64,000 nt of DNA, taken from a bacterium (lineage in GTDB: Bacteria; JAAXHH01). The stretch covers positions 150,286 through 214,285 of the forward strand of contig CBDETH010000008.1 of NCBI GenBank assembly GCA_965242885.1. The letters are read 5' to 3'. A program made the translations under genes and the position numbers. The notes under the pieces are model-generated. The model did no database searches, was not told where the DNA came from, and saw only the letters and a program-made list of their open reading frames with translations. Of the stretch, positions 5,046 through 40,024 are shown one piece after another. Every line of letters begins with the position of its first letter. Positions within the stretch are counted from its first letter, which is position 1.

Positions 5046-5342
5046 TTCACTCCTGTTTACCGGTGAATTCGATTAACAAGCCTTGACGGCCGCGAAAAAC
5101 AGGGGCCGTTCCGCGACAGAACATATATGACACCCGGACGCGGGACAAGGTAATTCAAGCGGCGCGCGCAAGTCGCCTGTAACGGTACTACGTATCCGGC
5201 TGAATGCCCTTGACTAATCCGCCTTCCCGCTTATCATGCAAAGGGCGTTTTAAAGTCGCGCCGGTCAATCGCATGCCCGGACGCGCCAGGTATCTGACGA
5301 TCGCGTCCCGGATTACGTGTGGAATATCGTGAGGCAACGGTT

Positions 5343-6143: not shown

Positions 6144-6159
6144 CCGCGGTCCGCCAGGT

Positions 6160-6195
6160 TCGCACGGTCCTCACGGTCCGCACGGTCCGTCCACC
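6160..6195. repeat. 9-nt microsatellite (cacggtccg x4) in the map / GNAT-protein intergenic region
   Basis: Direct reading. Confidence 0.7.
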
Positions 6196-6239
6196 TCACC
6201 GGTCCTTCTAACCGGGCGTCCCCGTCTGAGCAAGAATCA

Positions 6240-9479: not shown

Positions 9480-9513
9480 CTCCTCACTATCTCCTTACCA
9501 TCTTCTTACCATC

Positions 9514-10947: not shown

Positions 10948-11540
10948 CGCGCGGTCGCCCGGACCGCCCGGTCCAGCAACGACTTCAACGCGGGGGTGAA
11001 GTCAATATCCCGCGCGGCCTCCCGTCCCGTGGGCGACATCTTCTTCCAGGTCTTCGCCAGAATATCGACCAGTTTTTCGTCACTTTGCTTTTTTGCGAAC
11101 GCAGTCAGATAGTGCCGGAGAAACACCAGGCAGGCCACGTCCTCGACGGTCTGCGCCTCGGGGTCGGCCTTGAAGCGCTCTTTCCGAACGAGAGCCTGCA
11201 CGCGGTCTACGAGGGCGTCGTCATAGCCGGCATCCCGCAGGATGGCGCCCGCGGTCTGGGCGTGGTACCAGGCCAGTTCCGTGCGCCACTGCCGGTAACC
11301 TAGCCGTCCTACGGGGAAATCGCCGCGGGGAATCTTCCACCGCTGGATGTGCTGGCAGCGCACGGCCAGCCGCAGTGCTTCCGACGCGCCGGGCGCCAGG
11401 TCTTCAAGGCAGGCTGACATCCGCAAGCCGTACAGAAGCGCTTTCGGCATCGATCGGCCGTCGACTTCCTCGGATTCCGGATCGGCGCCATTCGCGGCGT
11501 CGATGCGTTCCATGGCATCCGAAAATCGATCATGATCCAT
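10944..11540 (-). CDS. Hypothetical protein (possibly DUF4202 family)
   Basis: 198-aa ORF with good coding appearance; the stop overlaps the sulfatase start; the family assignment is from memory only. Confidence 0.3.
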   Translation of the reverse strand: MDHDRFSDAMERIDAANGADPESEEVDGRSMPKALLYGLRMSACLEDLAPGASEALRLAVRCQHIQRWKIPRGDFPVGRLGYRQWRTELAWYHAQTAGAILRDAGYDDALVDRVQALVRKERFKADPEAQTVEDVACLVFLRHYLTAFAKKQSDEKLVDILAKTWKKMSPTGREAARDIDFTPALKSLLDRAVRATAR

Positions 11541-11576
11541 CAGTCAAGTCGCTTTCACTTTTCAGTCGCTATCACC

Positions 11577-11612
11577 AAAAAGCCGCCGGTTGATGATTCC
11601 GGCGGCTTTTTA
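11577..11612 (-). terminator. Rho-independent terminator (gccgccgg–loop–ccggcggc plus a T run), bidirectional in appearance
   Basis: 8-bp GC stem, 9-nt loop, flanked by A4 and T5; lies 30 nt downstream of the stop of the 11644..12072 gene. Confidence 0.6.
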
Positions 11613-11643
11613 GTAGTGGCATGAAGCGTTACGGGATCGTGTT

Positions 11644-12072
11644 TCAGGCGGACATGGCGAGCTGTTCGCTGTATTCCTGCATCTCGAACGACCGCTCGGC
11701 CGGTTGGAAATCGATGCCGTGCCGGTCGCACAGCTTGCGCAGCTTGTTCACAGCGCCGCCGATATGCTTTCCGCCCCTGCAGATCCCGAACAGGTGCTGG
11801 CTCACGACCCTGCGGGAGATGCCCAGGATCTCCGCGGTCTCCTGCTGGGTCTTCTGGTAGATGAAATACAGCACCACGACCTCGCACTGTTTCTGGGTCA
11901 GATACTGGGAGAGGAAATCGTAGACCGCGTCGGCCAGTTCGTCCACACGGTCTTCGCGCTGGTACCTGTGCACCCGATCCTCCCCCGTCTCGTACCAGAT
12001 ATTCGCTTCATTGGGATATTGCTCCAGGTCAACCTGGTCCAATCGGATTTCCCAGAATTCTGGATTATACAT
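11644..12072 (-). CDS. Small sigma-70 region-4-like HTH protein (ECF-sigma-like C-terminal domain only)
   Basis: LTQKQCEVVVLYFIYQKTQQETAEILGISRRVVSQHL matches sigma70_r4 / LuxR-type HTH. Confidence 0.5.
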   Translation of the reverse strand: MYNPEFWEIRLDQVDLEQYPNEANIWYETGEDRVHRYQREDRVDELADAVYDFLSQYLTQKQCEVVVLYFIYQKTQQETAEILGISRRVVSQHLFGICRGGKHIGGAVNKLRKLCDRHGIDFQPAERSFEMQEYSEQLAMSA

Positions 12073-25149: not shown

Positions 25150-26034
25150 ATGACCGACAAATTCTGCCCGCTGAACCTGGCTCCGGAGGAACTTATCGAG
25201 TACACGCCGGACTGGGACGGCGAACGCTTCCCGGACGGACGGCCCAGGGTGCCGGACGGGATCATCGAGCGGATGAAGAACGTCTCCATCACCCAGGCCT
25301 GGGGCGTGATGCGCGGCGCGGGCTACGAACACCAGTACGAGGGCGGCTGGGCGCAGACCCATCCCGGCAAGACGCTCGTGGGCCGGGCGCTGACGGCCAT
25401 GTACATGCCCCGGCGGCCGGCCATGCGCGCGGTGATGGAGGCGAAGGGCGCCGCCGCCGGCTGCATCGGCGACCAGATCTCCTGGCCCATCGACATGCTC
25501 GTTCCCGGGGACGTCTACGTAGCGGACACCTACGGCAAGGTGGACGAGGGGCCCATCATCGGCGACAATCTGGCCACCGCCATCTACGCCAATTCCGGCA
25601 ACGGCGTGGTCTTCGACGGGTCCGTGCGGGACCTGGAAGGCATCGAGGAACTGGAGGACTTCGCCTGCTTCGTCCGGGGCTGGCACCCCTCCTACGCCTC
25701 ACCCACGATCATGCTCCTGGGCGTCAACACCGCGGTGCGCATCGGCCAGGCCACGGTCATGCCCGGCGACGTCGTCCTGGGCAAGCGCGAAGGCGTCGTC
25801 TTCATCCCGCCCCACCTCGCGGAGAACGTGGTTAAGACCTCCGAACTCGTCCAGCTGAGGGATATGTTCGGCAAGCAGCGGCTGCGGGAGGGGAAATACA
25901 CACCCGGCCAGATCGACGACCGGTGGACGGACGGGATGGAGGCGGATTTCTCGGAATGGCTCGAGGACCACATGGACGAACTGCCGGTCCCGAAGTCGGC
26001 CATCCAGGACCTGCTGAAGGAACGGACGTGGTGA
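25150..26034 (+). CDS. RraA-family protein (RNase E inhibitor / HMG-CHA aldolase-like fold)
   Basis: RraA-like core (…GDNLATAIYANSGNGVVFDGSVRD…); start chosen at MTDKFCPL. Confidence 0.65.
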   Translation: MTDKFCPLNLAPEELIEYTPDWDGERFPDGRPRVPDGIIERMKNVSITQAWGVMRGAGYEHQYEGGWAQTHPGKTLVGRALTAMYMPRRPAMRAVMEAKGAAAGCIGDQISWPIDMLVPGDVYVADTYGKVDEGPIIGDNLATAIYANSGNGVVFDGSVRDLEGIEELEDFACFVRGWHPSYASPTIMLLGVNTAVRIGQATVMPGDVVLGKREGVVFIPPHLAENVVKTSELVQLRDMFGKQRLREGKYTPGQIDDRWTDGMEADFSEWLEDHMDELPVPKSAIQDLLKERTW

Positions 26035-26045
26035 GGGAGGTTTCG

Positions 26046-26252
26046 TCAGGCACTCACATTCGGCCTGCGCTCAAAAGCGAATTCCATGATATTCGCGTTT
26101 TCTTCCGCGTGTTCGATGGTCATGGAGACGAGATTGCCCTCTTCATCAAGGTCCATGTAGACGTCCTCGGACATCTCCTGCGTCTCTACCGCGGCACTAT
26201 CCAGAAATACGATGTGCAGCGTGTCCGTATCTTCATAGTACTTGATCTTCAT
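26046..26252 (-). CDS. DUF2283-family small protein (putative antitoxin-like)
   Basis: MKIKYYEDTDTLHIVF… is the DUF2283 signature; first gene of the low-GC island; no DUF4258 partner is present. Confidence 0.55.
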   Translation of the reverse strand: MKIKYYEDTDTLHIVFLDSAAVETQEMSEDVYMDLDEEGNLVSMTIEHAEENANIMEFAFERRPNVSA

Positions 26253-26387
26253 CTTGAACTCTTCGTGGAAAGTCTCGATCGAAGAAGGCGTTGTGAACCG
26301 ATTCTCCATCCTCCACATGTCGTAAAGAAAGTTGTACCTAATTGTTGCTTGAATGCACACGGCCTAATAGCGCCATTTGAAACTTGG

Positions 26388-29300
26388 TTAAGCACCAGCC
26401 TCAATTCGAGAATCGGATTCATTACTGGCAATTCCAATGTAACGATCATAAAACACCGTCAACTTGTCCAGAATGCGCTCTTTGGTTTTTGCTCGTTCGC
26501 CACTGGGTGAAAATCGGCCCCCGGGGGGCAGGATAGTGGAAAGGGCTGTACCGGTAGTTGGAACGCCCCCGTCCCGAAACGCATTGCGCATAAATCGAAA
26601 CGTTGCATCCCTATCGACGTTCTCGCTCAATACAATCTGCTCAAGTTCCTCCTTTTTGCGTTCCTCGACGAAATGCTTCCAGTCCCTATCCACGTCGGAA
26701 TGGTCCCCAAGCGAAGCAATAAATACCTGAATAAGGTCTTTCTTGTTCCGCAGTTCAACGCTTGAATCCATGGCCTTTTCTATATCGATTAAAACCTCTT
26801 TGTCCTGTTGATGGCTCTCGTGGAACTTTCTCACGAGTTCCAGAATGTAATCGATATTTATCTCGATCTGCTTGATCAACTCCATCTCGAAGACCAGGTC
26901 ATCGTTGATGTTCGCGCTTTCACCATCCCCGCCCGATCGGAAATCATCGTACAGATCTATATACATGCTGTGGTAGTCCTGTTGATCGCGCGGTGAGAGG
27001 ATTTCATTGCCCTTGAACTCATCAAATGCCGTCAGGATATTTCGGACCCGAAGAATGGTACCGTAAAGCTTGATGAAATTCCGCTGGGACTGCTCGCCAA
27101 TGATATAAGCGCCGACAGGATACTTCTCCAGCAACTCCTCCACCAGGTCGGCGTAACCGCGCACAGGGTGGTCTCCATCCTGATAACCTTCGTAGTAATC
27201 GCGGTAGGACTTCAGCAGCACAAGCCCACCCGCTTCCGGGTTGCCGAAGAGCGCGATGGACTCGTTCGTGGCCTTCTCCAAGTTTCGAAAGCAGACGATA
27301 TTTCCGAATGTCTTTACACTGTTGAGAATGCGGTTGGTGCGCGAAAACGCCTGGAGCAATCCGTGCAGGCGCAGGTTTCTGTCTACCCAAAGCGTATTCA
27401 CCGTCGTTGCGTCGAATCCCGTCAAGAACATGTTGACCACGAGGAGGACGTCGATTTCGCGGTTTTTCACCCTCTCGCTCACGTCCTTGTAGTAATTCTG
27501 AAACTTGTCGGACGACGTATCGTACGATGTTGCGAACAGGGAGTTGTAGTCCTCGATCGCGCCGTCGAGGAAGTGACGTGAACTCGCGTCAAGCCCGCTC
27601 GTATCGTCCGGGTTCTCATCCACCATCCCGTCCGGGTCTTCATCGTTCACACCGAAGCTGTAGATCAGCGCCACCTTCAGTTTTTTGTCACTTGGCGCAT
27701 CAGATAGTTGCCGTTTGAATTCCGCGTAATAGCGTCTGGCCATTTCGATAGAGGCTACGGCGAATATCGAATTGAATCCGGCGAGACGTCGATCCTTCAG
27801 CTTGTAGAAACTATTCCGCTTGGTCTTCCGGTCGAAGTGCTCGCAAATGTAGCGCACGATATTCGCAACCCGTTCCGGAGAGGCCAGCGCCGCCTTGCAA
27901 TCTATATCGGCCACCTGCTCGTCCTCGATATCCTCCGCCTCTTTGATCGTCGAGACATAATCTACCTTAAACGGCAATACGTTCTTGTCCCCGATGGCGT
28001 CCGCGATTGTGTAGGTGTGCGCCTTCTCGCCGAATGCCTGTTCGGTGGTTTTCAGGTCGGGCCGTCCCCCGGAAGCGGCGTTGGCTGCAAAGATCGGCGT
28101 GCCGGTGAATCCAAAAAGATGATACTTCGAGAATGACTTTGTTATCGCGGCGTGCATTTCGCCGAACTGCGAGCGATGGCACTCGTCGAATATGAGGACC
28201 ACATGTCTTTTGAAAACCTCATGTTCGCGGTTCAGCCTTACAAACCGGTCCAGTTTCTGAATCGTCGTGATGATGATACGGGCGTCCGGGTCTTCAAGCT
28301 GCCTTTGCAGGATCGCCGTGCTGGTATTGCTGTTTGCGGCGCCCTTCTCGAATTTGTCGTACTCCTTCATGGTCTGGTAGTCCAGATCCTTCCGATCCAC
28401 TACGAACAGGACCTTGTCGACATGTTCCATCCTGCTTGCCAGCTGCGCCGTCTTGAAACTCGTCAGGGTCTTTCCGGAGCCTGTGGTATGCCAAATGAAT
28501 CCGCCGGCCTCGACCGTGCCCAGTATCCGGTGGTTGGTACTGATGACGATTCGATTCAGTATGCGTTCCGTCGCGACGATCTGGTAAGGTCTCATGACTA
28601 GCAACAACCGGTCGGTGGTGAATACGCAGTACCGGGTCAGGACGTTAAGCAGCGTGTGCTTCGCGAAGAAGGTCCGAGAGAAATTTACCAGGTCCCTGAT
28701 GGGCTTATTGGCCGCATCGGCCCACCAACTAGTGAATTCGAAGCTGTTGCTCGATCGCTTGACGTACTTCGCCGAGCCCTGTTGGGTTTCCTTAACGTGC
28801 TGCATACGGGTCGTATTGCTGTAGTACTTCGTGTTCGTGCCATTCGAAATGACAAAAAGCTGGATGTATTCGAAAAGCCCCGCCTCTGCCCAGAAACTCT
28901 CACGCTGATAGCGATTGATCTGATTGAATGCCTCCCGTATCGGTACGCCGCGGCGCTTGAGTTCGACGTGGACCAGCGGCAGCCCGTTGACCAGCACGGT
29001 AACGTCGTATCGGTTCGCATGCAGCCCGCTGTCGGTTGTGTACTGCCTGATGACCTGCAGTTTGTTGTCGTGGATGTTGTTCTTGCTTAGTAGATAAATG
29101 TTTTTCTTCGATCCGTCGTCGCGGGTTAGTATCTTGACGTAATCTTCCTGAATCGTAGCGGTCTTTTCTTCGATACCGTCGTTCCGGTTGGCCAATTCGC
29201 TGTCGAGAAAAAGGTTCCATTCACTGTCGCTGAAACTGTAGTCATTGAGTTCCTCCAGTTGGCTTCGAAGATTCTCTATCAGGCTGTCTTCGTGCGTAAT

Positions 29301-29465
29301 CTGGATGTACTCGTACGCTTGAGATTTGAGTTGTGCAACAAAGGCACACTCAAGATCTGCCTCGCTCTGGTAACTTTCGGCGCGGTAATTCACCGGCGCG
29401 TATTCCGCCACCACAGTGCTTTGCGCCTGCTCGGCGATGACCTTATAGACAGGGTTTTCGCTCAT
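26388..29465 (-). CDS. hsdR: Type I restriction enzyme R subunit (HsdR)
   Basis: SF2 helicase motifs (…GSGKT…, DECHRS, …) and the HsdR N- and C-terminal regions; start chosen at MSENPVYKV (ATG 29465) rather than the track's upstream ATG. Confidence 0.9.
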   Translation of the reverse strand: MSENPVYKVIAEQAQSTVVAEYAPVNYRAESYQSEADLECAFVAQLKSQAYEYIQITHEDSLIENLRSQLEELNDYSFSDSEWNLFLDSELANRNDGIEEKTATIQEDYVKILTRDDGSKKNIYLLSKNNIHDNKLQVIRQYTTDSGLHANRYDVTVLVNGLPLVHVELKRRGVPIREAFNQINRYQRESFWAEAGLFEYIQLFVISNGTNTKYYSNTTRMQHVKETQQGSAKYVKRSSNSFEFTSWWADAANKPIRDLVNFSRTFFAKHTLLNVLTRYCVFTTDRLLLVMRPYQIVATERILNRIVISTNHRILGTVEAGGFIWHTTGSGKTLTSFKTAQLASRMEHVDKVLFVVDRKDLDYQTMKEYDKFEKGAANSNTSTAILQRQLEDPDARIIITTIQKLDRFVRLNREHEVFKRHVVLIFDECHRSQFGEMHAAITKSFSKYHLFGFTGTPIFAANAASGGRPDLKTTEQAFGEKAHTYTIADAIGDKNVLPFKVDYVSTIKEAEDIEDEQVADIDCKAALASPERVANIVRYICEHFDRKTKRNSFYKLKDRRLAGFNSIFAVASIEMARRYYAEFKRQLSDAPSDKKLKVALIYSFGVNDEDPDGMVDENPDDTSGLDASSRHFLDGAIEDYNSLFATSYDTSSDKFQNYYKDVSERVKNREIDVLLVVNMFLTGFDATTVNTLWVDRNLRLHGLLQAFSRTNRILNSVKTFGNIVCFRNLEKATNESIALFGNPEAGGLVLLKSYRDYYEGYQDGDHPVRGYADLVEELLEKYPVGAYIIGEQSQRNFIKLYGTILRVRNILTAFDEFKGNEILSPRDQQDYHSMYIDLYDDFRSGGDGESANINDDLVFEMELIKQIEINIDYILELVRKFHESHQQDKEVLIDIEKAMDSSVELRNKKDLIQVFIASLGDHSDVDRDWKHFVEERKKEELEQIVLSENVDRDATFRFMRNAFRDGGVPTTGTALSTILPPGGRFSPSGERAKTKERILDKLTVFYDRYIGIASNESDSRIEAGA

Positions 29466-29663
29466 ACTCGACTCCCACATGTACCAAATACGATGGCACC
29501 GTTTTCGTTGGTGGTATGGCACGCAATGAACTGGGGTTCCGCAGGCGCACAAAGTACCTTGCATCTGGATAACTGTCAAGGCGGCATACCGCCCCGCCCA
29601 TTACAGAAACTGGTCCCCAGGGAACGGGCTTGGGTCGACCGATTTGGAGAACCTGTTTTCGCT

Positions 29664-29692
29664 TTGACTAACGCCATTTCAAGATTTAGAAT
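29664..29692 (+). promoter_or_regulatory. Near-consensus sigma70 promoter (TTGACT-N17-TAGAAT) for the embedded ATPase gene
   Basis: -35 at 29664-29669 and -10 at 29687-29692, read directly, ~60 nt upstream of ATG 29753. Confidence 0.5.
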
Positions 29693-29752
29693 GCCATACA
29701 GCGTCTTTTACTGGTCGGTGAAGCGATTTCGAACGCATAAGGAATATGGATC

Positions 29753-31480
29753 TTGTTGACCGAATTAACCGTACGGAATTTCAAGCCTTTTGATGACGTC
29801 CGTATAGAACTCGCCAACCCCGTCGTGTTCATTGGCCCGAACAACTCCGGGAAGACGTCGGCAATGCAAGCACTGGCGTTGTGGAACACCGGCCTGAAGC
29901 GATGGAACGAGCGCCGTTCCGGATCACCCGCGCCTGAGCGCCGACCCGGGGTAACGGTCAACCGCCGTGACCTGATCGCCATGCCAGTTCCTTCAGCCAA
30001 TCTGCTCTGGAGGGCGCTACGTACGCGAAACGTCCGGCAAACAACCGGCGGGCCGAGGACATCCAATATCCGCATCGACGTAATCGTCGTCGGCGTCGGG
30101 AAACAGGGCGAATGGAAGTGTGGACTGGAGTTCGATTATGCCAACGAGGAGTCGATCTACTGCCGACCCTTACGAAACGATGGCGACGCCGACTCCCGCA
30201 TGGCGGTTCCCCCCGAGGCGGGCGCCGTGGAGGTCGCCTTCCTTCCCCCCATGTCAGGGCTTTCAGCCACCGAAACGCGGTTGGATCCAGGCGCGGTCGA
30301 TGTGCGCGTCGGGGAGGGCCGAACCGCGGAGGTACTGCGCAATCTTTGCTTTCAAGTCTCCGAAGGGGATCCCCACCGTTGGGAGGCCATCATATCGCGT
30401 ATAGCACAGTTGTTCGGCGCTGAAATCGATCCTCCGAAATACGTGGTCGAACGGGGAGAGGTCACCATGACCTACCGGGAGGAAGGGGTACAGCTCGACC
30501 TGTCCTCAAGCGGCCGGGGCATGCAGCAGACGCTGCTTCTCCTCGCGTACATGCACGCGAATCCCGGTGCGGTCGTCCTGCTCGACGAGCCCGACGCCCA
30601 TCTCGAAATCCTGCGGCAGCGCCAGATCTACCGAATGATCTCCGAAGAGGCGGAGGGAAATGGTTGTCAGATCATCGCGGCCAGTCATTCCGAGGTCTTG
30701 CTGAACGAAGCGGCGGGCAGGGATACGGTTGTTGCCTTCATCGGGAATCCACACCGGATCGACGACCGAGGCAGCCAGACGTTGAAGGCGCTCCGCGAAA
30801 TCGGCTTTGAGCAGTACACCCAGGCTGGTCAAACCGGCTGGGTGTTGTATCTGGAAGGGTCGACGGACCTCGCGATCCTGCAGGCCTTTGCTAAACGGCT
30901 GAATCATCGTGAAGCGATGCACGCGCTTGAGCGTCCCTTCGTCCACTATATCGGAAACCAATTGGCGAAGGCGGAAAGCAATTTTCACGGACTCAGGGAA
31001 GCGCTGCCCACGCTGCGAGGCATAGCAATCCTGGACGAGATCACGCGGGACCAACCCGCCGACGGGCTGGCGTGCATGGCGTGGGAGCGGCGGGAAATCG
31101 AAAATTACCTCTGCACTCAAGCGACGCTTGAAGCCTACGCCGCTTCAAGCGATAGGGCGGCAGCAGTCGGACCTCTCTTCGAATACGCAGAGGCAAAAAA
31201 ACGACTGGACGCAATGCGGGCCGCCATCCGGGAAGTATCCGCGGCAATGATCACTCTGGGTCGGGGATCTCCCTGGGACGCAGACGCCAAGGTGAGCGAT
31301 GAATTCCTTGCCCCACTCTTCGCCGACTATTTCGAACGGCTGCAACTCCCCAATCTGATGAACAAGAGTAGTTACCACAAGTTGGTGGACTTTGTTCCCG
31401 ATCAGGAGATTGACCCTGGGATCAGACGCGTCCTGGACGCCATCGCGACAACGGATGCGGAATCCAGCGGAAAGGCCTGA
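29753..31480 (+). CDS. ABC-type ATPase (AAA_21/AAA_15-like) with a C-terminal TOPRIM/DUF4435-like domain (OLD-family / PARIS-like / PrrC-like position)
   Basis: Walker A (GPNNSGKTS), Walker B (VVLLDEPDAHLE), H-loop (IIAASHSE); the C-terminal region carries VLYLEGSTDLAIL and ILDEITRD (TOPRIM-like E…DxD); lies between hsdR and hsdS on the opposite strand. Confidence 0.6.
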   Translation: MLTELTVRNFKPFDDVRIELANPVVFIGPNNSGKTSAMQALALWNTGLKRWNERRSGSPAPERRPGVTVNRRDLIAMPVPSANLLWRALRTRNVRQTTGGPRTSNIRIDVIVVGVGKQGEWKCGLEFDYANEESIYCRPLRNDGDADSRMAVPPEAGAVEVAFLPPMSGLSATETRLDPGAVDVRVGEGRTAEVLRNLCFQVSEGDPHRWEAIISRIAQLFGAEIDPPKYVVERGEVTMTYREEGVQLDLSSSGRGMQQTLLLLAYMHANPGAVVLLDEPDAHLEILRQRQIYRMISEEAEGNGCQIIAASHSEVLLNEAAGRDTVVAFIGNPHRIDDRGSQTLKALREIGFEQYTQAGQTGWVLYLEGSTDLAILQAFAKRLNHREAMHALERPFVHYIGNQLAKAESNFHGLREALPTLRGIAILDEITRDQPADGLACMAWERREIENYLCTQATLEAYAASSDRAAAVGPLFEYAEAKKRLDAMRAAIREVSAAMITLGRGSPWDADAKVSDEFLAPLFADYFERLQLPNLMNKSSYHKLVDFVPDQEIDPGIRRVLDAIATTDAESSGKA

Positions 31481-31588
31481 GGCCTAGCAAAGACCGGGAG
31501 TCCGAAATCAGCCTTTACGCCACCCATCGGACCTAGCGAAGCCCAGTAGTAAAATCCAGACTCGTCAGACCGGAACGCAGGCAGAGAA

Positions 31589-32263
31589 TCACGCCGGGTT
31601 AACCGACGGTTCCCCCGATTCCGGCCTGGGTTCGAAAGTTAGCAGCCTGTCCCGGTAATACTCGTATTGTTTCCGACGCGCGGCCAGTTCGGCCGGCAAC
31701 CCGATCGTAATATCGTTCACGAGCATATCGAAACGATCCAGGATCGAGACGATACGCTTCTGTTCGGTTAGGGGCGGGACGGGGATTTTGATCTTTTTAA
31801 TCGCGCGAGGGTGAACCCGATAGACTTTCGTGCCAGTTGCAAATCTCCTGAACTCGCTCAAGTATGAGTTGGACATCAGAATGTAATTGAGAAAACCCGG
31901 CGCTATCAGGTCTTTCCTGATGATTTTCAGTACGGTAGTTTCAGTCCCGGCAAGAAACTTTTGTTGGGTAGTATTCTCGATCAACACGGCCTTTCCGATG
32001 TCGTCCTTCGTTTCCGAAGTCAGATTATAAACGATGTCGCCCGTATCCAGTAGTTGATCGTTTCGAAAACGTTCATTTGCCGAAACTTTAGCTATATGAT
32101 CGAACTCTGAATCGAGATTGACCACCCTGTGATATAGTTTGTAAACATCTCCATAATGAATGTACGGTATTGTATTTATTGCAGAAATCCGGTTGCGTGG
32201 AATACTTGCGCCTTTGCTGAACGTTGCAATATCACCTATCTTCACCCCCCCCCCCCCCCCCAT
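31589..32263 (-). CDS. hsdS: HsdS C-terminal half (TRD2 plus distal conserved region); begins at an ATG fused to the poly-G tract
   Basis: …IPVPPLTEQKRIVSILD…RRKQYEYYRDRLL… is the HsdS conserved region; MGGGGG is encoded by the homopolymer. Confidence 0.75.
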   Translation of the reverse strand: MGGGGGVKIGDIATFSKGASIPRNRISAINTIPYIHYGDVYKLYHRVVNLDSEFDHIAKVSANERFRNDQLLDTGDIVYNLTSETKDDIGKAVLIENTTQQKFLAGTETTVLKIIRKDLIAPGFLNYILMSNSYLSEFRRFATGTKVYRVHPRAIKKIKIPVPPLTEQKRIVSILDRFDMLVNDITIGLPAELAARRKQYEYYRDRLLTFEPRPESGEPSVNPA

Positions 32264-32918
32264 CTAATTCATTGATATTAAACAACTTATCTCTGTAATA
32301 CTCATACTGCTTTTTTCTTGCTTCCAGCTCTGCTTCCAGCTCTGCTTCCAGCTCTTTAAAAGTGTCGAGGGTTTTCACGATCTCTGCTTGGATAGGCAAG
32401 GGGGGAATGGGGATTTCGAGACGTGACCACTTGCTCTTTGTAAGTCCAAATCGCGTAATCCCCGTCGCTGCTTTTTGAATTTGCTTTTGTAGTTCGTCAG
32501 ATTCAAATAAATATGCAATGTAACAAGAAGTAGTATAGTTGGATTTATGGGGTCGAAGCCTCATTACATGATAACTATACACGGCGTTGTGGATGTTTTC
32601 GACAGCGACGGCAGATATGCCTATATCTTCCTTAGTTTCAGAAGTTGGTGTAATAAAAATATCACCTCGTTTAATGTCGCAGCTTTCGAATTGTGCGTCT
32701 GTCGCAGTCACCTTCATTTTCAATATGTCCTTAGAAATGAACTGGTTTCTCACGACATCCATGTAATTTAAAAGTAAAACTTGTTTCTGCCCTTCCTTGG
32801 TCTTTTTATCTGCACCGACCTTTCCGAATCCGCATAATCTGCCCAACGCCCGAAACTCCACCCCATCCGGACACAATTCGGATATCAGTTTCTCGATACG
32901 ACCCACGTGCGTTTTCAT
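32232..32918 (-). CDS. hsdS: HsdS N-terminal half (TRD1 plus central conserved region), truncated by a frameshift at the poly-G tract
   Basis: …LEIPIPPLPIQAEIVKTLD…KKQYEYYRDKLF…; the start ATG overlaps the hsdM stop (ATGA). Confidence 0.8.
   Translation of the reverse strand: MKTHVGRIEKLISELCPDGVEFRALGRLCGFGKVGADKKTKEGQKQVLLLNYMDVVRNQFISKDILKMKVTATDAQFESCDIKRGDIFITPTSETKEDIGISAVAVENIHNAVYSYHVMRLRPHKSNYTTSCYIAYLFESDELQKQIQKAATGITRFGLTKSKWSRLEIPIPPLPIQAEIVKTLDTFKELEAELEAELEARKKQYEYYRDKLFNINELDGGGGGGEDR
32245..32261 (-). repeat. Homopolymeric tract of 17 G (minus strand; 17 C on plus) at the junction of the two hsdS halves: a candidate phase-variation switch
   Basis: Counted directly; a 1-nt contraction to 16 G fuses the halves in frame (…LDGGGGGVKIGD…). 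Confidence 0.85.
32318..32356 (-). repeat. 12-bp x3 tandem repeat encoding (ELEA)3 in the HsdS central conserved region
   Basis: tgcttccagctc x3 read directly; analogous to the TAEL copy-number variation that changes spacer length in EcoR124I/II. Confidence 0.8.
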
Positions 32919-34480
32919 CTCGTTCCTTCTATTTCTAATACGATTTCGTCGATGGCCGTGCGGAGTTCCTGCTGGTGCGCAACGATCCGGTCGATCTCCT
33001 CGTTGAGCGCCTTGATATCGATAGTCTCCCGGGTGTCCTCGGGCTCCACGTAACTCGAAACCGAGATATTGTAGTCGTTCTGAGCGATAGCCTTGTTGTC
33101 GATCAGGGCGGCGAAGTGTTCGATGTCGACGCGATCAGCGTACGCCTTGAGGATCTTCGCGCGGTGCTCATCGGCCAGCTTGTTCTTGTTGCCTGAACGG
33201 ACGAATTCGGAGGATGCCTCGATGAAGAGCGTCTTGTTGTCCGCCTTGCTTTTTTTCAGCACGATGATGCAGGTGGCGATGCTGGTTCCGAAGAAGAGAT
33301 CGGGGGGTAGCTGGATCACTGTGTCGATGTAGTTGTTTTCAATGAGATAGCGACGAATCTTCATTTCGGCTCCGCCGCGATACAGTACTCCTGGAAACTC
33401 GACTATGGCAGCTGTACCGCTGGTTGAAAGCCAGGAAAGCATGTGCATGACGAAAGCGAGATCGGCCTTGCTTTTGGGCGCCAAAACGCCTGCTGGAGAA
33501 AACCGCGGGTCGTTGATGAGGATCGGATTCGCGTCGCCGTCCCATTTGATCGAATAGGGCGGATTGGAGACTATGGCGTCAAACGGTTCATCGTCCCAAT
33601 GCGCCGGGTCGGTGAGTGTGTCTCCGAGGGCGATATCGAACCGCTCGTAATTGATGTCATGCAGGAACATGTTGATGCGGCAGAGGTTAAAGGTCGTGAG
33701 GTTTACCTCCTGCCCGAAGAAACCTTGGCGAACCTTCTCCTTCCCTAGCACCTTGGAGAACTTCAGCAGCAACGAACCCGAACCACAAGCCGGATCGTAT
33801 ACCTTGTTTACATCGTGCCGGCCGACGGTCGTGATTTCTGCGAGCAATTCGCTGACCTCCTGCGGGGTGAAAAATTCGCCGCCGGACTTGCCCGCGTTCG
33901 ATGCATACATCGTCATCAGGTATTCGTAGGCATCTCCGAAAGCGTCTATGGTAGAGTCGGCGTAATCCTGGAAACTCAGTCCGGCAATGGCGTCGAGCAG
34001 TCTAACCAGTTTACGGTTCCGCTGTTCCACCGTGGCGCCGAGTTTGGGCGAGTTTACGTCTAGGTCATCGAAGAGGCCCTTCAGGTCGTCCTCGCTCGCA
34101 GTGCCCTTTGCCGAGTTCTCGATATTTCTAAAGACCCTGGCGAGCGTTTCGTTCAGGTCCTGGTCTTGTCGCGCGGAAGCCGCCACACTGGCAAACAACT
34201 CGGAGGGCAGGATGTAAAATCCTTTCTCCTTTACCGTTTCGTCACGCCCCAACTCCGCATTTTCGTCCGACAGTTCTGCGTAATCGAAATCGGAGATGCC
34301 CCCTCGACGTTCGTCGTCGTTGATATAGGCGGTGAGGTTCTCGCTGATAAATCGGTAGAACAACATCCCCAGCACGTATTGCTTGAAGTCCCAACCGTCC
34401 ACGCTGCCCCGTAGATCATTGGCAATCTGCCAGATCGTGCGGTGCAGTTCTTCCCGATCTTGATGATTAGCGTGTGTCAT
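32915..34480 (-). CDS. hsdM: Type I restriction-modification methyltransferase subunit (HsdM)
   Basis: HsdM N-terminal domain plus N6-adenine MTase motifs (…DPACGSGS…, NPPY). Confidence 0.9.
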   Translation of the reverse strand: MTHANHQDREELHRTIWQIANDLRGSVDGWDFKQYVLGMLFYRFISENLTAYINDDERRGGISDFDYAELSDENAELGRDETVKEKGFYILPSELFASVAASARQDQDLNETLARVFRNIENSAKGTASEDDLKGLFDDLDVNSPKLGATVEQRNRKLVRLLDAIAGLSFQDYADSTIDAFGDAYEYLMTMYASNAGKSGGEFFTPQEVSELLAEITTVGRHDVNKVYDPACGSGSLLLKFSKVLGKEKVRQGFFGQEVNLTTFNLCRINMFLHDINYERFDIALGDTLTDPAHWDDEPFDAIVSNPPYSIKWDGDANPILINDPRFSPAGVLAPKSKADLAFVMHMLSWLSTSGTAAIVEFPGVLYRGGAEMKIRRYLIENNYIDTVIQLPPDLFFGTSIATCIIVLKKSKADNKTLFIEASSEFVRSGNKNKLADEHRAKILKAYADRVDIEHFAALIDNKAIAQNDYNISVSSYVEPEDTRETIDIKALNEEIDRIVAHQQELRTAIDEIVLEIEGTR

Positions 34481-34789
34481 TCAGCTTCCAATCCTATCTC
34501 GATGCTTGGTCTTTGGTGAGATCTCTTTGGGGTGTATATGACCGTCGCTGTCTGCCCACGCAGTCTTCACGAATACGAACAGTGGATTGTAGTCCTGTCG
34601 TGCCTGTTTCGTATCGAACAAACACCGGATCTAAGTACCGGCAACTCTGTCTGGATTTACAAGGGGTACAATATAGAGGTATCCAAACTTCTCGACAATC
34701 AAAAGACCTATGGACGGATGTGAAGCGGATCACCACCAGTTCGTATATTCGATTCACATTACATCGATTTCCATCGCTCACGTGGCCTA

Positions 34790-36043
34790 TCACCCGCCGA
34801 GCGCCCATCCCGTGGGTATCCCCATCACGCCATCACCCAGGTCTCGGATGTGAGGATCATTGGATAGCACCAGCGCCTGGAGGACGGGTTTGTCCAGGAT
34901 CTCATCCAAACGACGCAAATGGCGCGCATCCCTTTGCGAGACCTTTTCTTTGAATTTGATTTCGATAGGCACATAGCCGCTTTCGGTCTCGATCAGCAGA
35001 TCAACTTTCCGACCGTCGACTGTTCGCAGATGATGAAAATCAACGGGCAACCTCAGATTTCGCGCTTGCTTAAAGATCTCCACGATGATGGCACCTTCGA
35101 ATTCGGTACCCGTTGGCCGGGACCTGCGGTTGAGCAGTGCGCGTTGGACGCCTGGATCGAGGAAGTGTATTTTCGCTGCCTTGGAAAGGCGTTTGTTTCG
35201 GTTTCTGAACCACGGCTGTAACTGGATGATCTGGTAACTGATTTCGAGGTAGGAAACAAAACGAATGATCGTCCTGTGCGTCACGCTGGCGAGACGGGCC
35301 AGTTCGCTGATATTCAGCAAACCGCCAGCCAAACCGCCCAATGCCCGCAACATGCGTACATAGGGCACCAGGTCCCGAAGATTGGCCAGATCTCGAAGGT
35401 CTCTTTGCAGATACGTTCGCAGGTAGTCCTGTAGCCACCCGTACCGGTCCTCCCGGGACAGCGTGATATCGGAAACTACCGGCATGCCCCCGAATTCCAG
35501 GTAGTGATCGAGATGATCAACCGCTCTGGCGTACCTGTCGCATTGCTGGGGTATCCCTGATACGAGGATTTCAAGATCCCCCGATACAAGATACCGGACC
35601 AGGCGGGATTCCACGACCGGATCGTGCCAGGAATCGGTCATCATTTCCGGTATCGTGAGTGGATACAGTTCCATAATCGTGACGCGTCCAGCCAGGCTCT
35701 CCCGTATCTGCTCCATCAACAGGATCTGGCTGGATCCAAGCAGAATGGCACGGGCGTCGGTATACCGGTCGTACACCGCCTTGATGGATTCGACAATCGA
35801 TGGCGCTTTCTGAATTTCGTCCAGGATGACCCTGGGATAACGTTGGTACCACAGTGCCGCTGAAAGCGCAGTATAGTCCGGGCGCACGATCGGGTCTTCG
35901 AGCGAGACGAAACCGTATTCAGGAAACCCGGCCTGTACCAGGGTGGTCTTGCCTGTTTGACGGGCACCTGTCAATGCGATCAGTCGTCCCAGGCGGGTAT
36001 CTGCCTTCTGTTTCATCAAGGACAGCACAGTCCGGTTTTTCAT
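34790..36043 (-). CDS. AAA+ ATPase with a DUF4143 domain
   Basis: Walker A (GARQTGKTT) and the C-terminal DUF4143-like region; a common defence-island passenger. Confidence 0.7.
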   Translation of the reverse strand: MKNRTVLSLMKQKADTRLGRLIALTGARQTGKTTLVQAGFPEYGFVSLEDPIVRPDYTALSAALWYQRYPRVILDEIQKAPSIVESIKAVYDRYTDARAILLGSSQILLMEQIRESLAGRVTIMELYPLTIPEMMTDSWHDPVVESRLVRYLVSGDLEILVSGIPQQCDRYARAVDHLDHYLEFGGMPVVSDITLSREDRYGWLQDYLRTYLQRDLRDLANLRDLVPYVRMLRALGGLAGGLLNISELARLASVTHRTIIRFVSYLEISYQIIQLQPWFRNRNKRLSKAAKIHFLDPGVQRALLNRRSRPTGTEFEGAIIVEIFKQARNLRLPVDFHHLRTVDGRKVDLLIETESGYVPIEIKFKEKVSQRDARHLRRLDEILDKPVLQALVLSNDPHIRDLGDGVMGIPTGWALGG

Positions 36044-36329
36044 GTCACAAACTCATTTTGGCGTATTATTATGCTCTTTATGATAAATTATACGCTGTTA
36101 ATTCGATAAAGCAACCGAAATTTACGTTGAAAACACTCGTGTGGCGATACGAAGCCACAGGAGGGAGGGGAATTCAAGCGTGGGAAATGGTGGTCTGAAC
36201 CGGGGGATGCGTGCCTGGGTGTTCTGTGGGGGGAACGGCACCACGTTTTCATGGAAAAGACGAGATCGATTCCTGGCGGAATCAGTAATCAGTTATCCAT
36301 CGTTGTCGACGACGCGACCGTCTGCGTCA

Positions 36330-37919
36330 TTAGTCAGGCTGTCCCGCCGGAACTGGAGTCAGAGGGGGTTCAGTCACGGTCAACATCCCCGTACCCGATA
36401 CTCCGTCCATTGCGGCTTTGATCGTGGCTTCTCCAGCCGAAACACCCATAGCGAGACCAGAGGTGTCAATCGTCGCAACAGATTCATCCGAACTTGTCCA
36501 CGTAAACGCCACATCCGGGACCGACATCCCGTCAGCCGCCTTGGCCACTGCTTCGAGCTGCCGGGCTTGGCCTTCCTCGACTGTCGTCTCCGATGGAGTC
36601 ACTTCGATGATCGCTACCTCCGGCTTGCCGTCCGTCAGTTTCTGGATTGTATTGGGCACACTGTCAACCGAAGTGACCTCATCGATCTGCTTTGTGACAC
36701 GGACGTTTAACTCCGGGAACTTGTTAACCGTCGGCGCGATGCGGGAATCCCACGAGCCGACGCCTTTGTTGTACCGTTCTACCGCCTGCCGAAGCGACTT
36801 GCCCACGTCGATATAGTGCCCGGCAAAAACCGTCAGCCGTTCGTACATCTCCTTGCCCAGGTCGCTGATCTGCCGGGCGGTCTCCGCGACGCGGATCTGC
36901 TGCCAAGACATCTCCACGGCCTTGAGAAGCGCCAGCAGGGCGGGCGGCGTGACGATCACCACGTTCTTCTCGAGGGCCCGGTCCGTTAGCCCGGGTTCCC
37001 GCTCGACGGCGGGGATGAAAGCGAATTCGGGCAAGACCATCACCACCATGTCCGGCGTAGAGGCCAGGACGCTCCAGTACTCTTTCCTGGCCAGGGAGTC
37101 CACGTGACTTTTTACCTGGCTGACATGGCGATCGAACGCGGCGGACCTGGATTCGTCGTCGTCCGTCTCGAAGGCTTCCATAAGCGCCGTCAGTGACACC
37201 TTGGAATCGAGAATGACCGTCCGGTCCTGCGGCAGATGGACGATCACATCGGTTCGGATCCGTTCGCCTTCGCTGTCGAAGCTGTCCTGCACCGTGAAAT
37301 CGATATCCTTACTAAGGCCCGAAAGCTCCAGCACGCGCTCGAGCTGCGTTTCGCCCCAGCGTCCGCGCACGTCGGGCCGCTTGAGCGCGTTGGAAAGCGT
37401 CTGGGCCTCGCTGGCAAGTTCCTTGTTGGTCTGCATGAGGTTCAGCATCTGGGTGCGGAATTCACCGGCGTTTTCCGCCCGCGCCTTGTCCAGCGACACG
37501 ATTTTCTCCGATAGGGGCTTGACCAGTTTCTCGACGGCTTCCTGGCGTGCTTTTAACGATTCCTCGGCGTTTGCCTTGAACGATTCCTGCTGCGACTTCA
37601 GGACTTCCGACGACAGGGCCTTGAAGGTGTCCTTAAACCGCTTCTCGACCTCGTCCCGCTCGCCGAGGCGTTCCTGCGCATTGGTGAGTTTCTGAAGCAG
37701 TTCGGCCCGTTCAACTTCCAGCTTCCGGACTTCCTCCAGTGACTTCCCCGCTTCGGCCAGTTGCTCGCGCACGACGCCCAGTTTGGTCTCCATGGCCGCC
37801 TTCTCGCCGCTGAGCGTATAGATCCGGCTGCTGTTTCTTAAACTCCAGACCAGCACGCCTGCCGCCAGCGCCAGGCATCCCAGGAGCGCGATGAGCAATA
37901 TGATCGTCAGTGTGTCCAT
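36330..37919 (-). CDS. RmuC-family protein (membrane-anchored, coiled-coil, PD-(D/E)xK-like) with a C-terminal Big_2 Ig-like domain
   Basis: N-terminal TM, long coiled coil, RmuC core (…RPDVRGRWGETQLERVLELSG…), then …EVTPSETTVEEGQARQLEAVAKAADG…ATIKA… (Big_2-like). Confidence 0.6.
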   Translation of the reverse strand: MDTLTIILLIALLGCLALAAGVLVWSLRNSSRIYTLSGEKAAMETKLGVVREQLAEAGKSLEEVRKLEVERAELLQKLTNAQERLGERDEVEKRFKDTFKALSSEVLKSQQESFKANAEESLKARQEAVEKLVKPLSEKIVSLDKARAENAGEFRTQMLNLMQTNKELASEAQTLSNALKRPDVRGRWGETQLERVLELSGLSKDIDFTVQDSFDSEGERIRTDVIVHLPQDRTVILDSKVSLTALMEAFETDDDESRSAAFDRHVSQVKSHVDSLARKEYWSVLASTPDMVVMVLPEFAFIPAVEREPGLTDRALEKNVVIVTPPALLALLKAVEMSWQQIRVAETARQISDLGKEMYERLTVFAGHYIDVGKSLRQAVERYNKGVGSWDSRIAPTVNKFPELNVRVTKQIDEVTSVDSVPNTIQKLTDGKPEVAIIEVTPSETTVEEGQARQLEAVAKAADGMSVPDVAFTWTSSDESVATIDTSGLAMGVSAGEATIKAAMDGVSGTGMLTVTEPPLTPVPAGQPD

Positions 37920-37929
37920 GTGAAGATTT

Positions 37930-38544
37930 CTATCCTTTTATCACTTCAAGTAAGATGATTCTTGTTTCCTTGCAGAACTGTTCCAATAGTAGAGGAGAAA
38001 AACGACTCGACAACATCATTTTACCTGGTGTAATCGAATTGACTTTAGCTCCATAATGCCTTCGAACCACCTCATCAAATCTTTTTCGTGTTCTTGCATT
38101 TCCGTGGGCGATGTGATTTCTTACTTTCCTTAAATCGGATATAAAACTCCCATATATAGTTATAGTATTGATAAAGTGTTCATCTGCGGGAAACAGGTTT
38201 TCCAGGTTTTTTTTGATATCCGACGCTCGCCCCCATCTGAGCTGAATTCTGCTGTTGGAACTTCTCTCATATTCCAACATCGCTACACGAGCTCTTTTAA
38301 AGCTTCTTGTAGGACGGTGTCTGAGTAGCTGCGGAGTCGACCCGTCGCAGTAATTTGTACCGCATATCATCCGACAAGCTGAATCCTCAAATATGACCTC
38401 CAAAAGAGAGAATAGACGTACAACTATCATTTCGGCCAAGTAAATACGAGGAAGACTATCTAATGAATTTAAACGGGTTACAAGAGTTAATGCAGTTTCA
38501 GTTGTGTGACGGATTCTGTCAGCCTGTGGATGTAGAGTTGACAT
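37930..38544 (-). CDS. HEPN-like protein (Rx4H motif RNHIAH)
   Basis: 204-aa, all-alpha prediction by eye, with a C-terminal-half KVRNHIAHGN motif matching the HEPN Rx4-6H consensus; 5 nt downstream of the DUF262 gene. Confidence 0.4.
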   Translation of the reverse strand: MSTLHPQADRIRHTTETALTLVTRLNSLDSLPRIYLAEMIVVRLFSLLEVIFEDSACRMICGTNYCDGSTPQLLRHRPTRSFKRARVAMLEYERSSNSRIQLRWGRASDIKKNLENLFPADEHFINTITIYGSFISDLRKVRNHIAHGNARTRKRFDEVVRRHYGAKVNSITPGKMMLSSRFSPLLLEQFCKETRIILLEVIKG

Positions 38545-38549
38545 TGTAA

Positions 38550-39548
38550 CTACAAAAACCTGCTGATATAATTGGAACGAACTTTCCGACTAGCAATCCG
38601 TTGAGTACTAGCCCTACAAGCATCTGCAAAATCAACATCCACTTTAGGGCGATCACTTAGTGGCTTATCTGAGTTAAACCTTTCGTCGATCTCAAATAGA
38701 GCTTCTTCTAGTTTCCTGCCCTTAGCACCCGAGTTCGAGTCCAGCGCAAGTACCAAAGAGAAAAACACAGGTTTTCTTGAGAAAATCGTATCGCGGATTG
38801 ACGAAGGTGATAACGAGACAATCCTATCAAACACCGAGTCCAGCCTCTTTTGGATTTCTGGAGCTTCGGCAAAGGACTCGTCATTGTCGGCATAGAGTTT
38901 CTTTAACCTGGAATTTGAGAAATCTGATAACCCCTCAATCATATTCAGAATGATGTCAGAGATAAACTCAACTTCTTGCATACGTGCGATGTTGTTCGCT
39001 GTGAATACTCTTAAATCTCTCCACAGAGATAACCGAGATGCTGCTTCACGTAAGCAAAACTGTTTAAACTCCCCACTAAAGTCTGCGTTACGCTTTTCTT
39101 GCAGGTTAAGAGTCTTAGCAACAGAATTCAAACGTCCAAAAACCTCAATAACATCTGCATCCGAAGCTCCTAGAAGCCACCCACCAGATAGTTTTGTTTC
39201 ACGAAATACTCTTTTTTGATTTGTTGAGAGCATTTCATAGGTCACCTTGCCTTGATGTACAGGATGATATGCAGCGTACTCACCGCTGATATATTCCAGA
39301 ATTGCTCGGATACGTTGCTGACCATCGACTACTTCTCTAAGGCTCCTATCCTGTTCTAGATCAACAATGTGCCTAAAGTAAAGAGTGGGAACTGGTTTCT
39401 GTTCAAACAGCGTATTAAGAAGGTACGACTTCTGGGGTATCGTCCACACAGAACGCCGTTGGTACCATGGATTTAACTTTAGCTCCTTGTGTTTCTCCCA
39501 GTTAACAAGATCTTGTACAATCAAAGGTTCATAATCTACACGATCCAT
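38550..39548 (-). CDS. DUF262 (ParB/Srx-like, DGQQR motif) protein
   Basis: …REVVDGQQRIRAILEY… is the DUF262/GmrS-like signature. Confidence 0.7.
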   Translation of the reverse strand: MDRVDYEPLIVQDLVNWEKHKELKLNPWYQRRSVWTIPQKSYLLNTLFEQKPVPTLYFRHIVDLEQDRSLREVVDGQQRIRAILEYISGEYAAYHPVHQGKVTYEMLSTNQKRVFRETKLSGGWLLGASDADVIEVFGRLNSVAKTLNLQEKRNADFSGEFKQFCLREAASRLSLWRDLRVFTANNIARMQEVEFISDIILNMIEGLSDFSNSRLKKLYADNDESFAEAPEIQKRLDSVFDRIVSLSPSSIRDTIFSRKPVFFSLVLALDSNSGAKGRKLEEALFEIDERFNSDKPLSDRPKVDVDFADACRASTQRIASRKVRSNYISRFL

Positions 39549-40024
39549 GTTCTTCTCCTCCAGTTTTGTCTTTGATACAGTACTACACGATGTTCACATC
39601 GTACCAAAGGTATTTAGTTGGTTTTAGTAGAGACAATGGAACTCAGATTTGCCCTGTCAATAAACTAATACTCATATAATCTTACACATCAACTTGACAC
39701 GGGTTTCCAAATACTTGTGATTTCACCGTTGTTCGGATTTACGATCGGTATTAAGTCTAAGAATTACCAGGTATCTCATTACGGAACATACTTGAATCAA
39801 TCCTCCTATAATGCCAAACACGAGTTGATAATTCGATCAACTCGCTATTCTCATTTAAAATCTAAAATACATAAATGTCTTATAAGCATGACATCTCAAT
39901 TGAAAGGTATTTGCGTAGTTCCTTTGGGATGATACCCCTGTGTACCCACTACCGACAATCGAAAATGCGGTACAAACTGAGTTTCCTAGCGTTTAAACGA
40001 CAATTGCTAATTTTAACTCTACGA

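Follow-up and report, generated by a model that had tools for sequence, protein, structure and literature searches.

Characterised members of the OLD/PARIS group of defence proteins couple an ATPase, which senses or transduces an infection cue, to a Toprim domain that cuts DNA or tRNA (PMC10568477, PMC11464382, PMC12392090, PMC12445682). The genes of class 1 OLD proteins have been described as lying away from defence genes (PMC10568477). PARIS is triggered by Ocr, and the metal-binding residues of AriB are E26, D30, D88, E90 and E122 (PMC11464382). Here we analysed a gene, referred to as gene X, in a 64,000-nucleotide stretch of bacterial DNA (contig CBDETH010000008.1, positions 150,286 to 214,285; hereafter the window), where it lies within a Type I restriction-modification (hsd) locus and encodes an ABC ATPase with a predicted Toprim-like C-terminal half. 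Because this architecture matches that of characterised ATPase-Toprim members of the OLD/PARIS group, we favour, with somewhat better than even confidence, the reading that X is an autonomous single-protein ATPase-nuclease of the OLD/PARIS superfamily that would act as a phage-defence module.

Embedded modules of the OLD-ABC/Toprim kind have already been published, both as HEC-04 and from BREX/BR loci. HEC-04, a single gene encoding an ABC ATPase with a C-terminal Toprim domain, is embedded in Hma and is active against phages, a defence that depends on the acidic Toprim residues as well as on Walker A; in the same work Payne et al. 2024 formalised the approach of 'guilt-by-embedding' (bioRxiv 10.1101/2024.01.29.577857). 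According to the literature, the embedded defence systems tested so far operate independently of their host system. A 2026 survey in Nucleic Acids Research found at least 1242 taxa whose BREX and BREX-related (BR, Hma) loci contain Toprim-linked OLD-ABC modules; it read these modules as suicidal backups and those of PARIS-like type as a response to Ocr (PMC12839542). Type I loci are also well known to host nested genes, among them prrC and, in Vibrio, the tgvAB pair (PMC11411939). Set beside these systems, the X family is an unnamed and poorly annotated family of the OLD/PARIS group.

Domain architecture of X

X is an ABC ATPase, as the first-pass annotation of the window had proposed. Pfam matched it to AAA_21 (1.9e-21, 77.9 bits with a cut-off of 27), AAA_15 (1.2e-18, 68.3 bits with a cut-off of 32.1) and SMC_N (1.6e-10), and the PADLOC models agree, the best matches being to the ATPases of PARIS, Nsn, MADS, AbiL, Gabija, Old and Septu. 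The N-terminal half carries a Walker A motif (GPNNSGKTS, residues 28–36, with G28–T35 including K34), a signature-like motif (G254/G256/Q259), a Walker B motif (LLDEPDAHLE, residues 276–285, with D278-E279) and an H-loop (ASHSE, residues 310–314, with H312). Every motif quoted in that annotation for a 575-aa open reading frame (ORF) was found where it had been placed. In an alignment of 68 sequences that are 32–79% identical to X, each ATPase motif residue is either invariant or shared by no fewer than 97% of the sequences, K34, D278, E279 and H312 being kept in 66–68 of the 68. Secondary structure assignment with DSSP on the AlphaFold model revealed neither long coiled-coil nor helical-bundle inserts in the predicted ATPase.

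AlphaFold gave a mean predicted local distance difference test score (pLDDT) of 92 and a predicted template modelling score (pTM) of 0.80 for full-length X, and a pLDDT of 88.5 for its C-terminal half. In this model the C-terminal half displays the arrangement of acidic residues typical of Toprim: E368 and D372 follow strand 363–367, D428 ends strand 422–427, and E448-x-E450-N-Y comes directly after strand 439–443. E368 and D372 belong to the acidic motif VLYLEGSTDLAIL (residues 364–376), and D428 to ILDEITRD (residues 426–433). These residues are well kept among the same 68 sequences (E368 in 64, D372 in 68, D428 in 64, E448 in 66 and E450 in 66). When the full-length model was compared with known structures by Foldseek, TsOLD (6p74), a class 1 OLD nuclease from Thermus scotoductus, came out on top at 1.8e-13, followed by PtuA and GajA. 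AriB and class 2 OLD ranked first for the C-terminal domain, whose predicted fold is an AriB-like Toprim, closer to AriB than to OLD. Judged by their number and their E-x3-D spacing, the acidic residues of X resemble the metal-binding residues of AriB and may be equivalent to them.

The first-pass annotation had described the C-terminus as TOPRIM/DUF4435-like and had stated that no named family could be assigned with confidence. The former description was upheld as far as the predicted fold is concerned, whereas neither DUF4435 nor Toprim_OLD was detected in X by Pfam. The latter was borne out, since residues 322–575 gave nothing significant against Pfam (E up to 10), NCBIfam, PADLOC, PHROGs or PDB sequences. 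Searches with relatives of X gave occasional matches at most. A profile of 22 family members found no relevant PDB sequence, and neither did the C-terminal half of one divergent member; one of the 22, a distant member, matched DUF4435 in Pfam (7.3e-5), two divergent members matched the AriB/AriAB models of PADLOC (2e-7 and 1e-3), and the HEC-04 model of PADLOC did not match the C-terminal halves of eight family members. According to precomputed annotation, none of 240 listed members has a Pfam domain on the C-terminal half and none has PF14491. A bridge to DUF4435-annotated proteins was also sought from the divergent member P0254, and none of the 120 further members listed carried PF14491.

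Comparison with known systems

X resembles PARIS in its AAA_15/AAA_21-type ATPase, in having five conserved acidic residues with the E-x3-D spacing of AriB, and in the link of its family to restriction systems that anti-restriction proteins inhibit. The fused AriAB model of PADLOC matched X at 57.5 bits and 2.6e-16 (residues 263–453 against profile positions 322–521 of 694). In contrast to PARIS, DUF4435 is undetected in X and in the 240 listed members, the AriB models miss the C-terminal half, the predicted ATPase is devoid of AriA-type helical inserts, and the second residue of the DxE motif is not conserved.

With the class 1 OLD proteins (P2 Old, TsOLD and Vibrio cholerae OLD, VcOLD) X shares the order of ABC ATPase, Toprim and helical region within a single chain of about 520–590 aa. 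TsOLD is both the best full-length fold match and the best PDB sequence match (1e-8) of X, and as in class 1 OLD the gene is often solitary and lacks a helicase or retron partner. However, the sequence match is confined to the ATPase motifs and the global template modelling score (TM-score) is only 0.35–0.38; the Old model of PADLOC matches residues 2–43 only, Pfam finds no Toprim_OLD, and about one quarter of the X-family loci are nested in restriction systems.

Like HEC-04 and the BREX-embedded modules, X is a single-gene ABC ATPase with a Toprim-like domain found in methylation-based loci, but unlike HEC-04, X also has relatives inside Type I and Type III-like systems. Membership of HEC-04 was rejected, the HEC-04 model being absent from the best 25 of 118 PADLOC hits of X and giving no match to its C-terminal half. 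The resemblance to PrrC and RloC lies in the hsdM-hsdS-X-hsdR position and in the coupling of an N-terminal ABC-type ATPase to a C-terminal nuclease, whereas X is located on the strand opposite the hsd genes and its family extends beyond Type I loci. PrrC itself was rejected as an identity for X, the effector being Toprim-like and not of the anticodon-nuclease type; likewise, no PrrC or RloC model was among the best 25 of the 118 hits. The same applied to MAD3 of MADS (NCBIfam NF047739, 33.7 bits with a cut-off of 420, residues 1–49 only) and to GajA of Gabija, a class 2 OLD, as no UvrD-like GajB lies beside X and most GajA models had their best stretch in the N-terminal part only.

Family size, selection and inheritance

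A search of cluster representatives (E<1e-30) placed 499 clusters at 50% identity in the X family. Among the best 150 listed clusters, the full-length matches are about 550–630 aa and align end to end, and the nearest 120 listed proteins, from several phyla, are 66–100% identical to X. In their source entries family members are named 'AAA family ATPase' or 'predicted ATPase'. The closest named relatives of X come from metagenome-assembled genomes of Gemmatimonadota, and a contig scan with the X protein alone returned only two close relatives; an exact look-up of protein P0001 matched no contig. A phage origin was rejected, with only two close relatives on IMG/VR contigs, one of which carries a Type III-like Mod.

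The ratio of non-synonymous to synonymous substitutions (dN/dS) of X compared with its relatives in the loci L001, L002 and L003 was 0.09–0.14, and its synonymous divergence (dS) from the closest relatives equalled that of hsdR and hsdM. The low dN/dS and the matching dS indicate that X is a working gene which has travelled together with the hsd genes in the lineage of the window. The locus L001 (region 4589–11696) harbours the closest relative, 94% identical to X. Here hsdR is distributed over three reading frames, there is no hsdM, hsdS is reduced to its last 87 residues and the AAA_14-DUF4143 gene has an internal deletion, while X is intact. Either the restriction system has decayed and X was retained, or the assembly contains errors. 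An intact X beside decayed hsd genes suggests that X is independent of the restriction system, and the many loci in which the gene is solitary likewise speak for its autonomy.

Genomic context of the family

We gathered 94 family loci, of which 87 remained after removal of near-duplicates, and identified restriction neighbours in the available flanks by an iterative search seeded with components from the family loci. Homologues of X are linked to restriction-modification genes, as had been anticipated from the window: such genes were found in the flanks of 24 of the 87 loci, within 300 bp in 21, and in 10 of the 30 loci whose flanks each span 3 kb or more. The systems involved are of Type I, Type III-like (Mod-X-Res) and DUF1156/Hma-like types. 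Pfam confirmed the order Mod (N6_N4_Mtase)-X-Res (ResIII) in L075 and L077, where X overlaps the upstream gene by 4 bp and is separated from the downstream one by 30 bp; the order hsdM/hsdS-X-hsdR in L116, whose Type I system is 26–32% identical to that of the window; a SNF2-type helicase-X-DUF1156 methylase arrangement in L094; and X followed by a DUF1156 methylase in L088, these last two being of the Hma or 'BREX-related' type. In Hma-like loci several relatives of X are flanked by the helicase on one side and by the DUF1156 methylase on the other, and in L003 the X homologue occupies the same place between hsdS and hsdR as in the window. In all Pfam-confirmed architectures X is located between the modification and the restriction modules, and nested relatives are usually co-directional with the restriction genes, with gaps of −5 to +42 bp.

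In a neighbour-joining tree of the family, built without bootstrap, restriction-linked loci occupy at least 10 separate positions (3 for Type I, at least 5 for Type III-like and 3 for Hma-like systems). Since the association recurs at separate tree positions while most loci lack it, we consider the link to restriction systems real and repeated, though not obligatory. Nor is the family an obligate partner of Type I systems, because about 70% of its loci have no restriction genes in their flanks. An obligate Type I link was also rejected by tblastn, which found the Hsd proteins of the window only in their own lineage, L116, L064 and L012/L013. The synteny of X is not conserved between lineages, and neighbour clustering combined with Pfam across the 87 loci revealed no conserved partner gene besides the restriction components.

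Some individual loci showed additional features. In L101 (6169–9996) X is preceded by a Type III-like Mod of 1275 aa, whose relatives have about 900 aa; by eye, the methyltransferase appears to be interrupted by an intein-like insertion that contains an endonuclease-like stretch. In L012 (6241–12447), and similarly in L013, a 146-aa AAA_15 fragment precedes X, and X overlaps by 4 bp a second AAA_15/AAA_21 ATPase of 582 aa, which is followed by a 320-aa protein without known domain; the 320-aa protein of L012 had no relative in PDB. This ATPase and the 320-aa protein may form a separate two-gene ATPase-effector system. The island of L012/L013 also holds hsdS, a SIR2+DUF87 gene and SbcCD. On the 8.5-Mb contig of L004 (3446–7987), a 1513-aa protein without Pfam match is encoded on the same strand as X and ends 14 bp before it.

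The locus in the window

The coordinates of gene X, its putative expression signals and its neighbours are listed in Table 1. X lies on the plus strand between the minus-strand genes hsdR and hsdS, divergent from the former across a 287-bp spacer (29466–29752) and convergent with the latter across a 108-bp gap; the ORF coordinates and the Pfam matches of the neighbours agree with the first-pass annotation on this arrangement. Its comparison with the prr locus, where prrC sits at the hsdS/hsdR junction, also holds, Pfam having confirmed hsd genes on either side of X. Neither a UvrD-like GajB nor a reverse transcriptase adjoins the gene. Homologues align with X from residue 1, and the start region, TCTTGTTGAC-GAATTAACC, is retained in all four related loci (the window, L001, L002 and L003), while the Shine-Dalgarno-like sequence is retained in the window, L001 and L002 and is missing from L003.

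Table 1. Positions of gene X, its domains and candidate signals, and of other genes in the window
Feature	Position	Strand	Remarks
Gene X, ABC-ATPase + Toprim-like protein	29753..31480 (stop codon included)	+	575 aa, TTG start
ABC ATPase domain, residues 1–321	29753..30715	+	Pfam AAA_21, AAA_15, SMC_N
Toprim-like core (predicted), residues ~362–455	30836..31117	+	
C-terminal helical domain (predicted), residues ~456–575	31118..31477	+	packed against Toprim core
Sigma-70-like promoter candidate, TTGACT-17-TAGAAT	29664..29692	+	10/12 consensus positions; within hsdR/X spacer
Shine-Dalgarno-like AAGGAA	29739..29744	+	ends 8 nt 5' of the TTG of X
hsdR	26388..29465	-	Pfam HSDR_N, SWI2_SNF2, T1R_D3-like, EcoR124_C; ORF open to 29579
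hsdS, two target-recognition domains	31589..32918	-	Pfam Methylase_S in both halves
hsdM	32915..34480	-	Pfam N6_Mtase 1.4e-112, HsdM_N
DUF2283 gene	26046-26360		low-GC island
AAA_14+DUF4143 ATPase	34790-36043		low-GC island
RmuC with Big_2 domain	36330-37919		low-GC island
HEPN (RiboL-PSP-like, below Pfam cut-off) + GmrSD_N/DUF262 pair	37930-39548		low-GC island

The promoter candidate upstream of X had been called strong. The consensus match is present and conserved, but it is not statistically unusual, since shuffles of the region gave an expected 1.1 sites of such quality by chance; alone, the match is not significant. In an alignment of the spacers, however, the -35 hexamer with its flank, the block CGCTTTGAC, was invariant in the window, L001, L002 and L003, and the -10 hexamer TAGAAT was identical in three of the four (the window, L001 and L002), whereas the remainder of the spacer has diverged among them. 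It is therefore conservation, and not the match count, that supports this promoter-like site. A second block in the spacer (29547–29600, GTCAAGGCGGC...CC) is partly conserved in the four loci and contains a short inverted repeat (GGCGG/CCGCC); this block may serve the divergent hsdR and X as a shared regulatory site.

With regard to the hsd genes themselves, alignment with orthologues places the true start of hsdR probably at the ATG at 29465. The hsdS gene is broken by a run of 17 G (32245–32261, minus strand) in the linker between the two target-recognition domains, resulting in the ORFs 32232–32918 and 31589–32263, while its orthologue in L003 is one ORF of 408 aa. The run could be a phase-variable tract that alters or silences the Type I specificity, or a homopolymer error of the assembly. 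Compared with L003, the first recognition domain is 38% identical and the second 79%, and this difference suggests domain swapping in hsdS. In L002 (10381–13332), about 3 kb with several plus-strand ORFs splits hsdS between its C- and N-terminal halves. The whole cluster is part of a 14-kb island (26000–40000) packed with defence-type genes, with a GC content of 37–56% compared with 62–68% outside. A tRNA-linked integration of this island was rejected, as there is no tRNA gene at its borders.

Discussion

The present data directly support the domain architecture of X, show that its two active sites are conserved and that the gene is under purifying selection, and document its inheritance together with the hsd genes in the lineage of the window as well as the recurrent, polyphyletic nesting of family members in Type I, Type III-like and DUF1156/Hma-like systems. 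For the defence function, the gating logic, the trigger and the substrate, we infer the following scheme. The N-terminal ABC ATPase would serve as sensor or switch, and the C-terminal AriB-like Toprim with its helical domain as a metal-dependent effector. If X behaves like OLD, Gabija and PARIS, its ATPase would hold the nuclease inactive until an infection cue arrives, with ATP binding or hydrolysis as the gate. The Toprim site would then cut either tRNA, as AriB and P2 Old do, or DNA, as GajA and VcOLD do; since the fold is closer to that of AriB, RNA (tRNA) is slightly, and weakly, favoured over DNA as the substrate. Lodged at the modification/restriction junction of the Type I cluster and transcribed from a putative promoter of its own, X would most likely act as a second-layer defence of the abortive-infection type.

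Several observations weigh against this reading. In the DxD/DxE motif of Toprim the second acidic residue is poorly kept, with D at position 430 in only 11 of the 68 sequences, the Foldseek E-values for the C-terminal domain are weak (best 2.9e-3) with low TM-scores, and residues 322–575 have no significant match to the DUF4435, Toprim_OLD, AriB, Old, GajA or HEC-04 models. An identity of 66–70% between phyla is unusually high for a defence gene. Roughly 70% of the loci have no restriction genes in their flanks, and many neighbours are housekeeping genes. Finally, Cran1, an archaeal ATPase of the OLD family, has a non-defence role in the cell cycle (PMC12796447).

Some of these points would also fit a housekeeping ABC ATPase-nuclease active in DNA maintenance, comparable to RecF, SbcC or Cran1, whose proximity to restriction genes is coincidental. 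Many loci are flanked by genes such as those for SecA, CTP synthase and Lon, or, in L005, by lipopolysaccharide genes; purifying selection is strong, identity between phyla is high, and the precedent of an OLD-family ATPase in the archaeal cell cycle exists (PMC12796447). We nevertheless regard this explanation as quite unlikely. Restriction genes adjoin X in 21 of 87 loci, far above the approximately 1% expected for random placement (a rough estimate and not a computed value), and X is located in the low-GC defence island of the window. Moreover, synteny is not conserved between lineages, horizontal transfer better explains the 66–70% identity seen among Gemmatimonadota, Acidobacteriota and Chloroflexota, and all the closest structural relatives of X are defence nucleases.

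The recurrent position next to restriction genes raises the question of whether X depends on them. That X is an integral accessory subunit of its restriction system, an extra nuclease or ATPase, might be read from the 4-bp overlap with the end of mod and the 30 bp before res in L075 and L077, or from a dS equal to that of hsdR and hsdM in the lineage of the window. We consider this highly improbable, given that family members are found in three restriction architectures that are unrelated to one another, and more often outside any, and that in the window X lies on the opposite strand with a promoter-like site of its own, while in L001 it has outlasted the decay of the restriction genes. Canonical Type I and Type III enzymes are not known to require an X-like subunit. 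A PARIS- or PrrC-like guard, sensing anti-restriction proteins (DNA mimics of the Ocr/ArdA type or Stp-like peptides) or inactivation of the neighbouring enzyme and then aborting the infection, is a special case of the autonomous-defence reading with a defined trigger; the first-pass annotation had put it forward, on grounds of genomic context. We find such a guard possible but doubtful. A C-terminal fold nearest to AriB, the fused AriAB match to residues 263–453 (2.6e-16), a position at the hsdS/hsdR junction exactly like that of prrC, and close nesting in three classes of methylation-based restriction at many tree positions all argue for it, as do the firing of PARIS by Ocr (PMC11464382) and the interpretation of PARIS-like modules in BREX/BR loci as anti-Ocr backups (PMC12839542). 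On the other hand, most loci of the family lack restriction genes in their vicinity, X has stayed intact in L001 despite the decayed Type I system, and its predicted ATPase has none of the inserts that AriA uses for its trigger-binding hexamer; the modification/restriction junction may merely be a permissive insertion site, and the embedded systems tested so far have been independent of their hosts. The broader proposal that the family as a whole is a dedicated single-chain guard of Type I, Type III and Hma restriction, latent until a phage anti-restriction factor disables the enzymes or itself acts as the trigger, appears unlikely to us. If it were true, a Toprim too divergent for existing models to recognise, joined to an ATPase without the AriA scaffold inserts, would implement the logic of PrrC and PARIS by a mechanistically distinct route, and horizontal transfer would have carried it into many phyla of soils and sediments.

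Since the general idea of embedded ATPase-Toprim modules has already been published, the value of X as an autonomous defence module would lie in a new family and a testable case and not in a new principle. Public annotation describes the family as 'AAA family ATPase' only, and current domain libraries miss the predicted nuclease half. The nesting of X extends 'guilt-by-embedding' to three restriction architectures. If X is indeed a defence gene, it represents a large and widespread family with members in Gemmatimonadota, Acidobacteriota, Chloroflexota, Nitrospinota and Omnitrophota, and it offers a compact one-gene candidate for PARIS/PrrC-like backups outside the model organisms.

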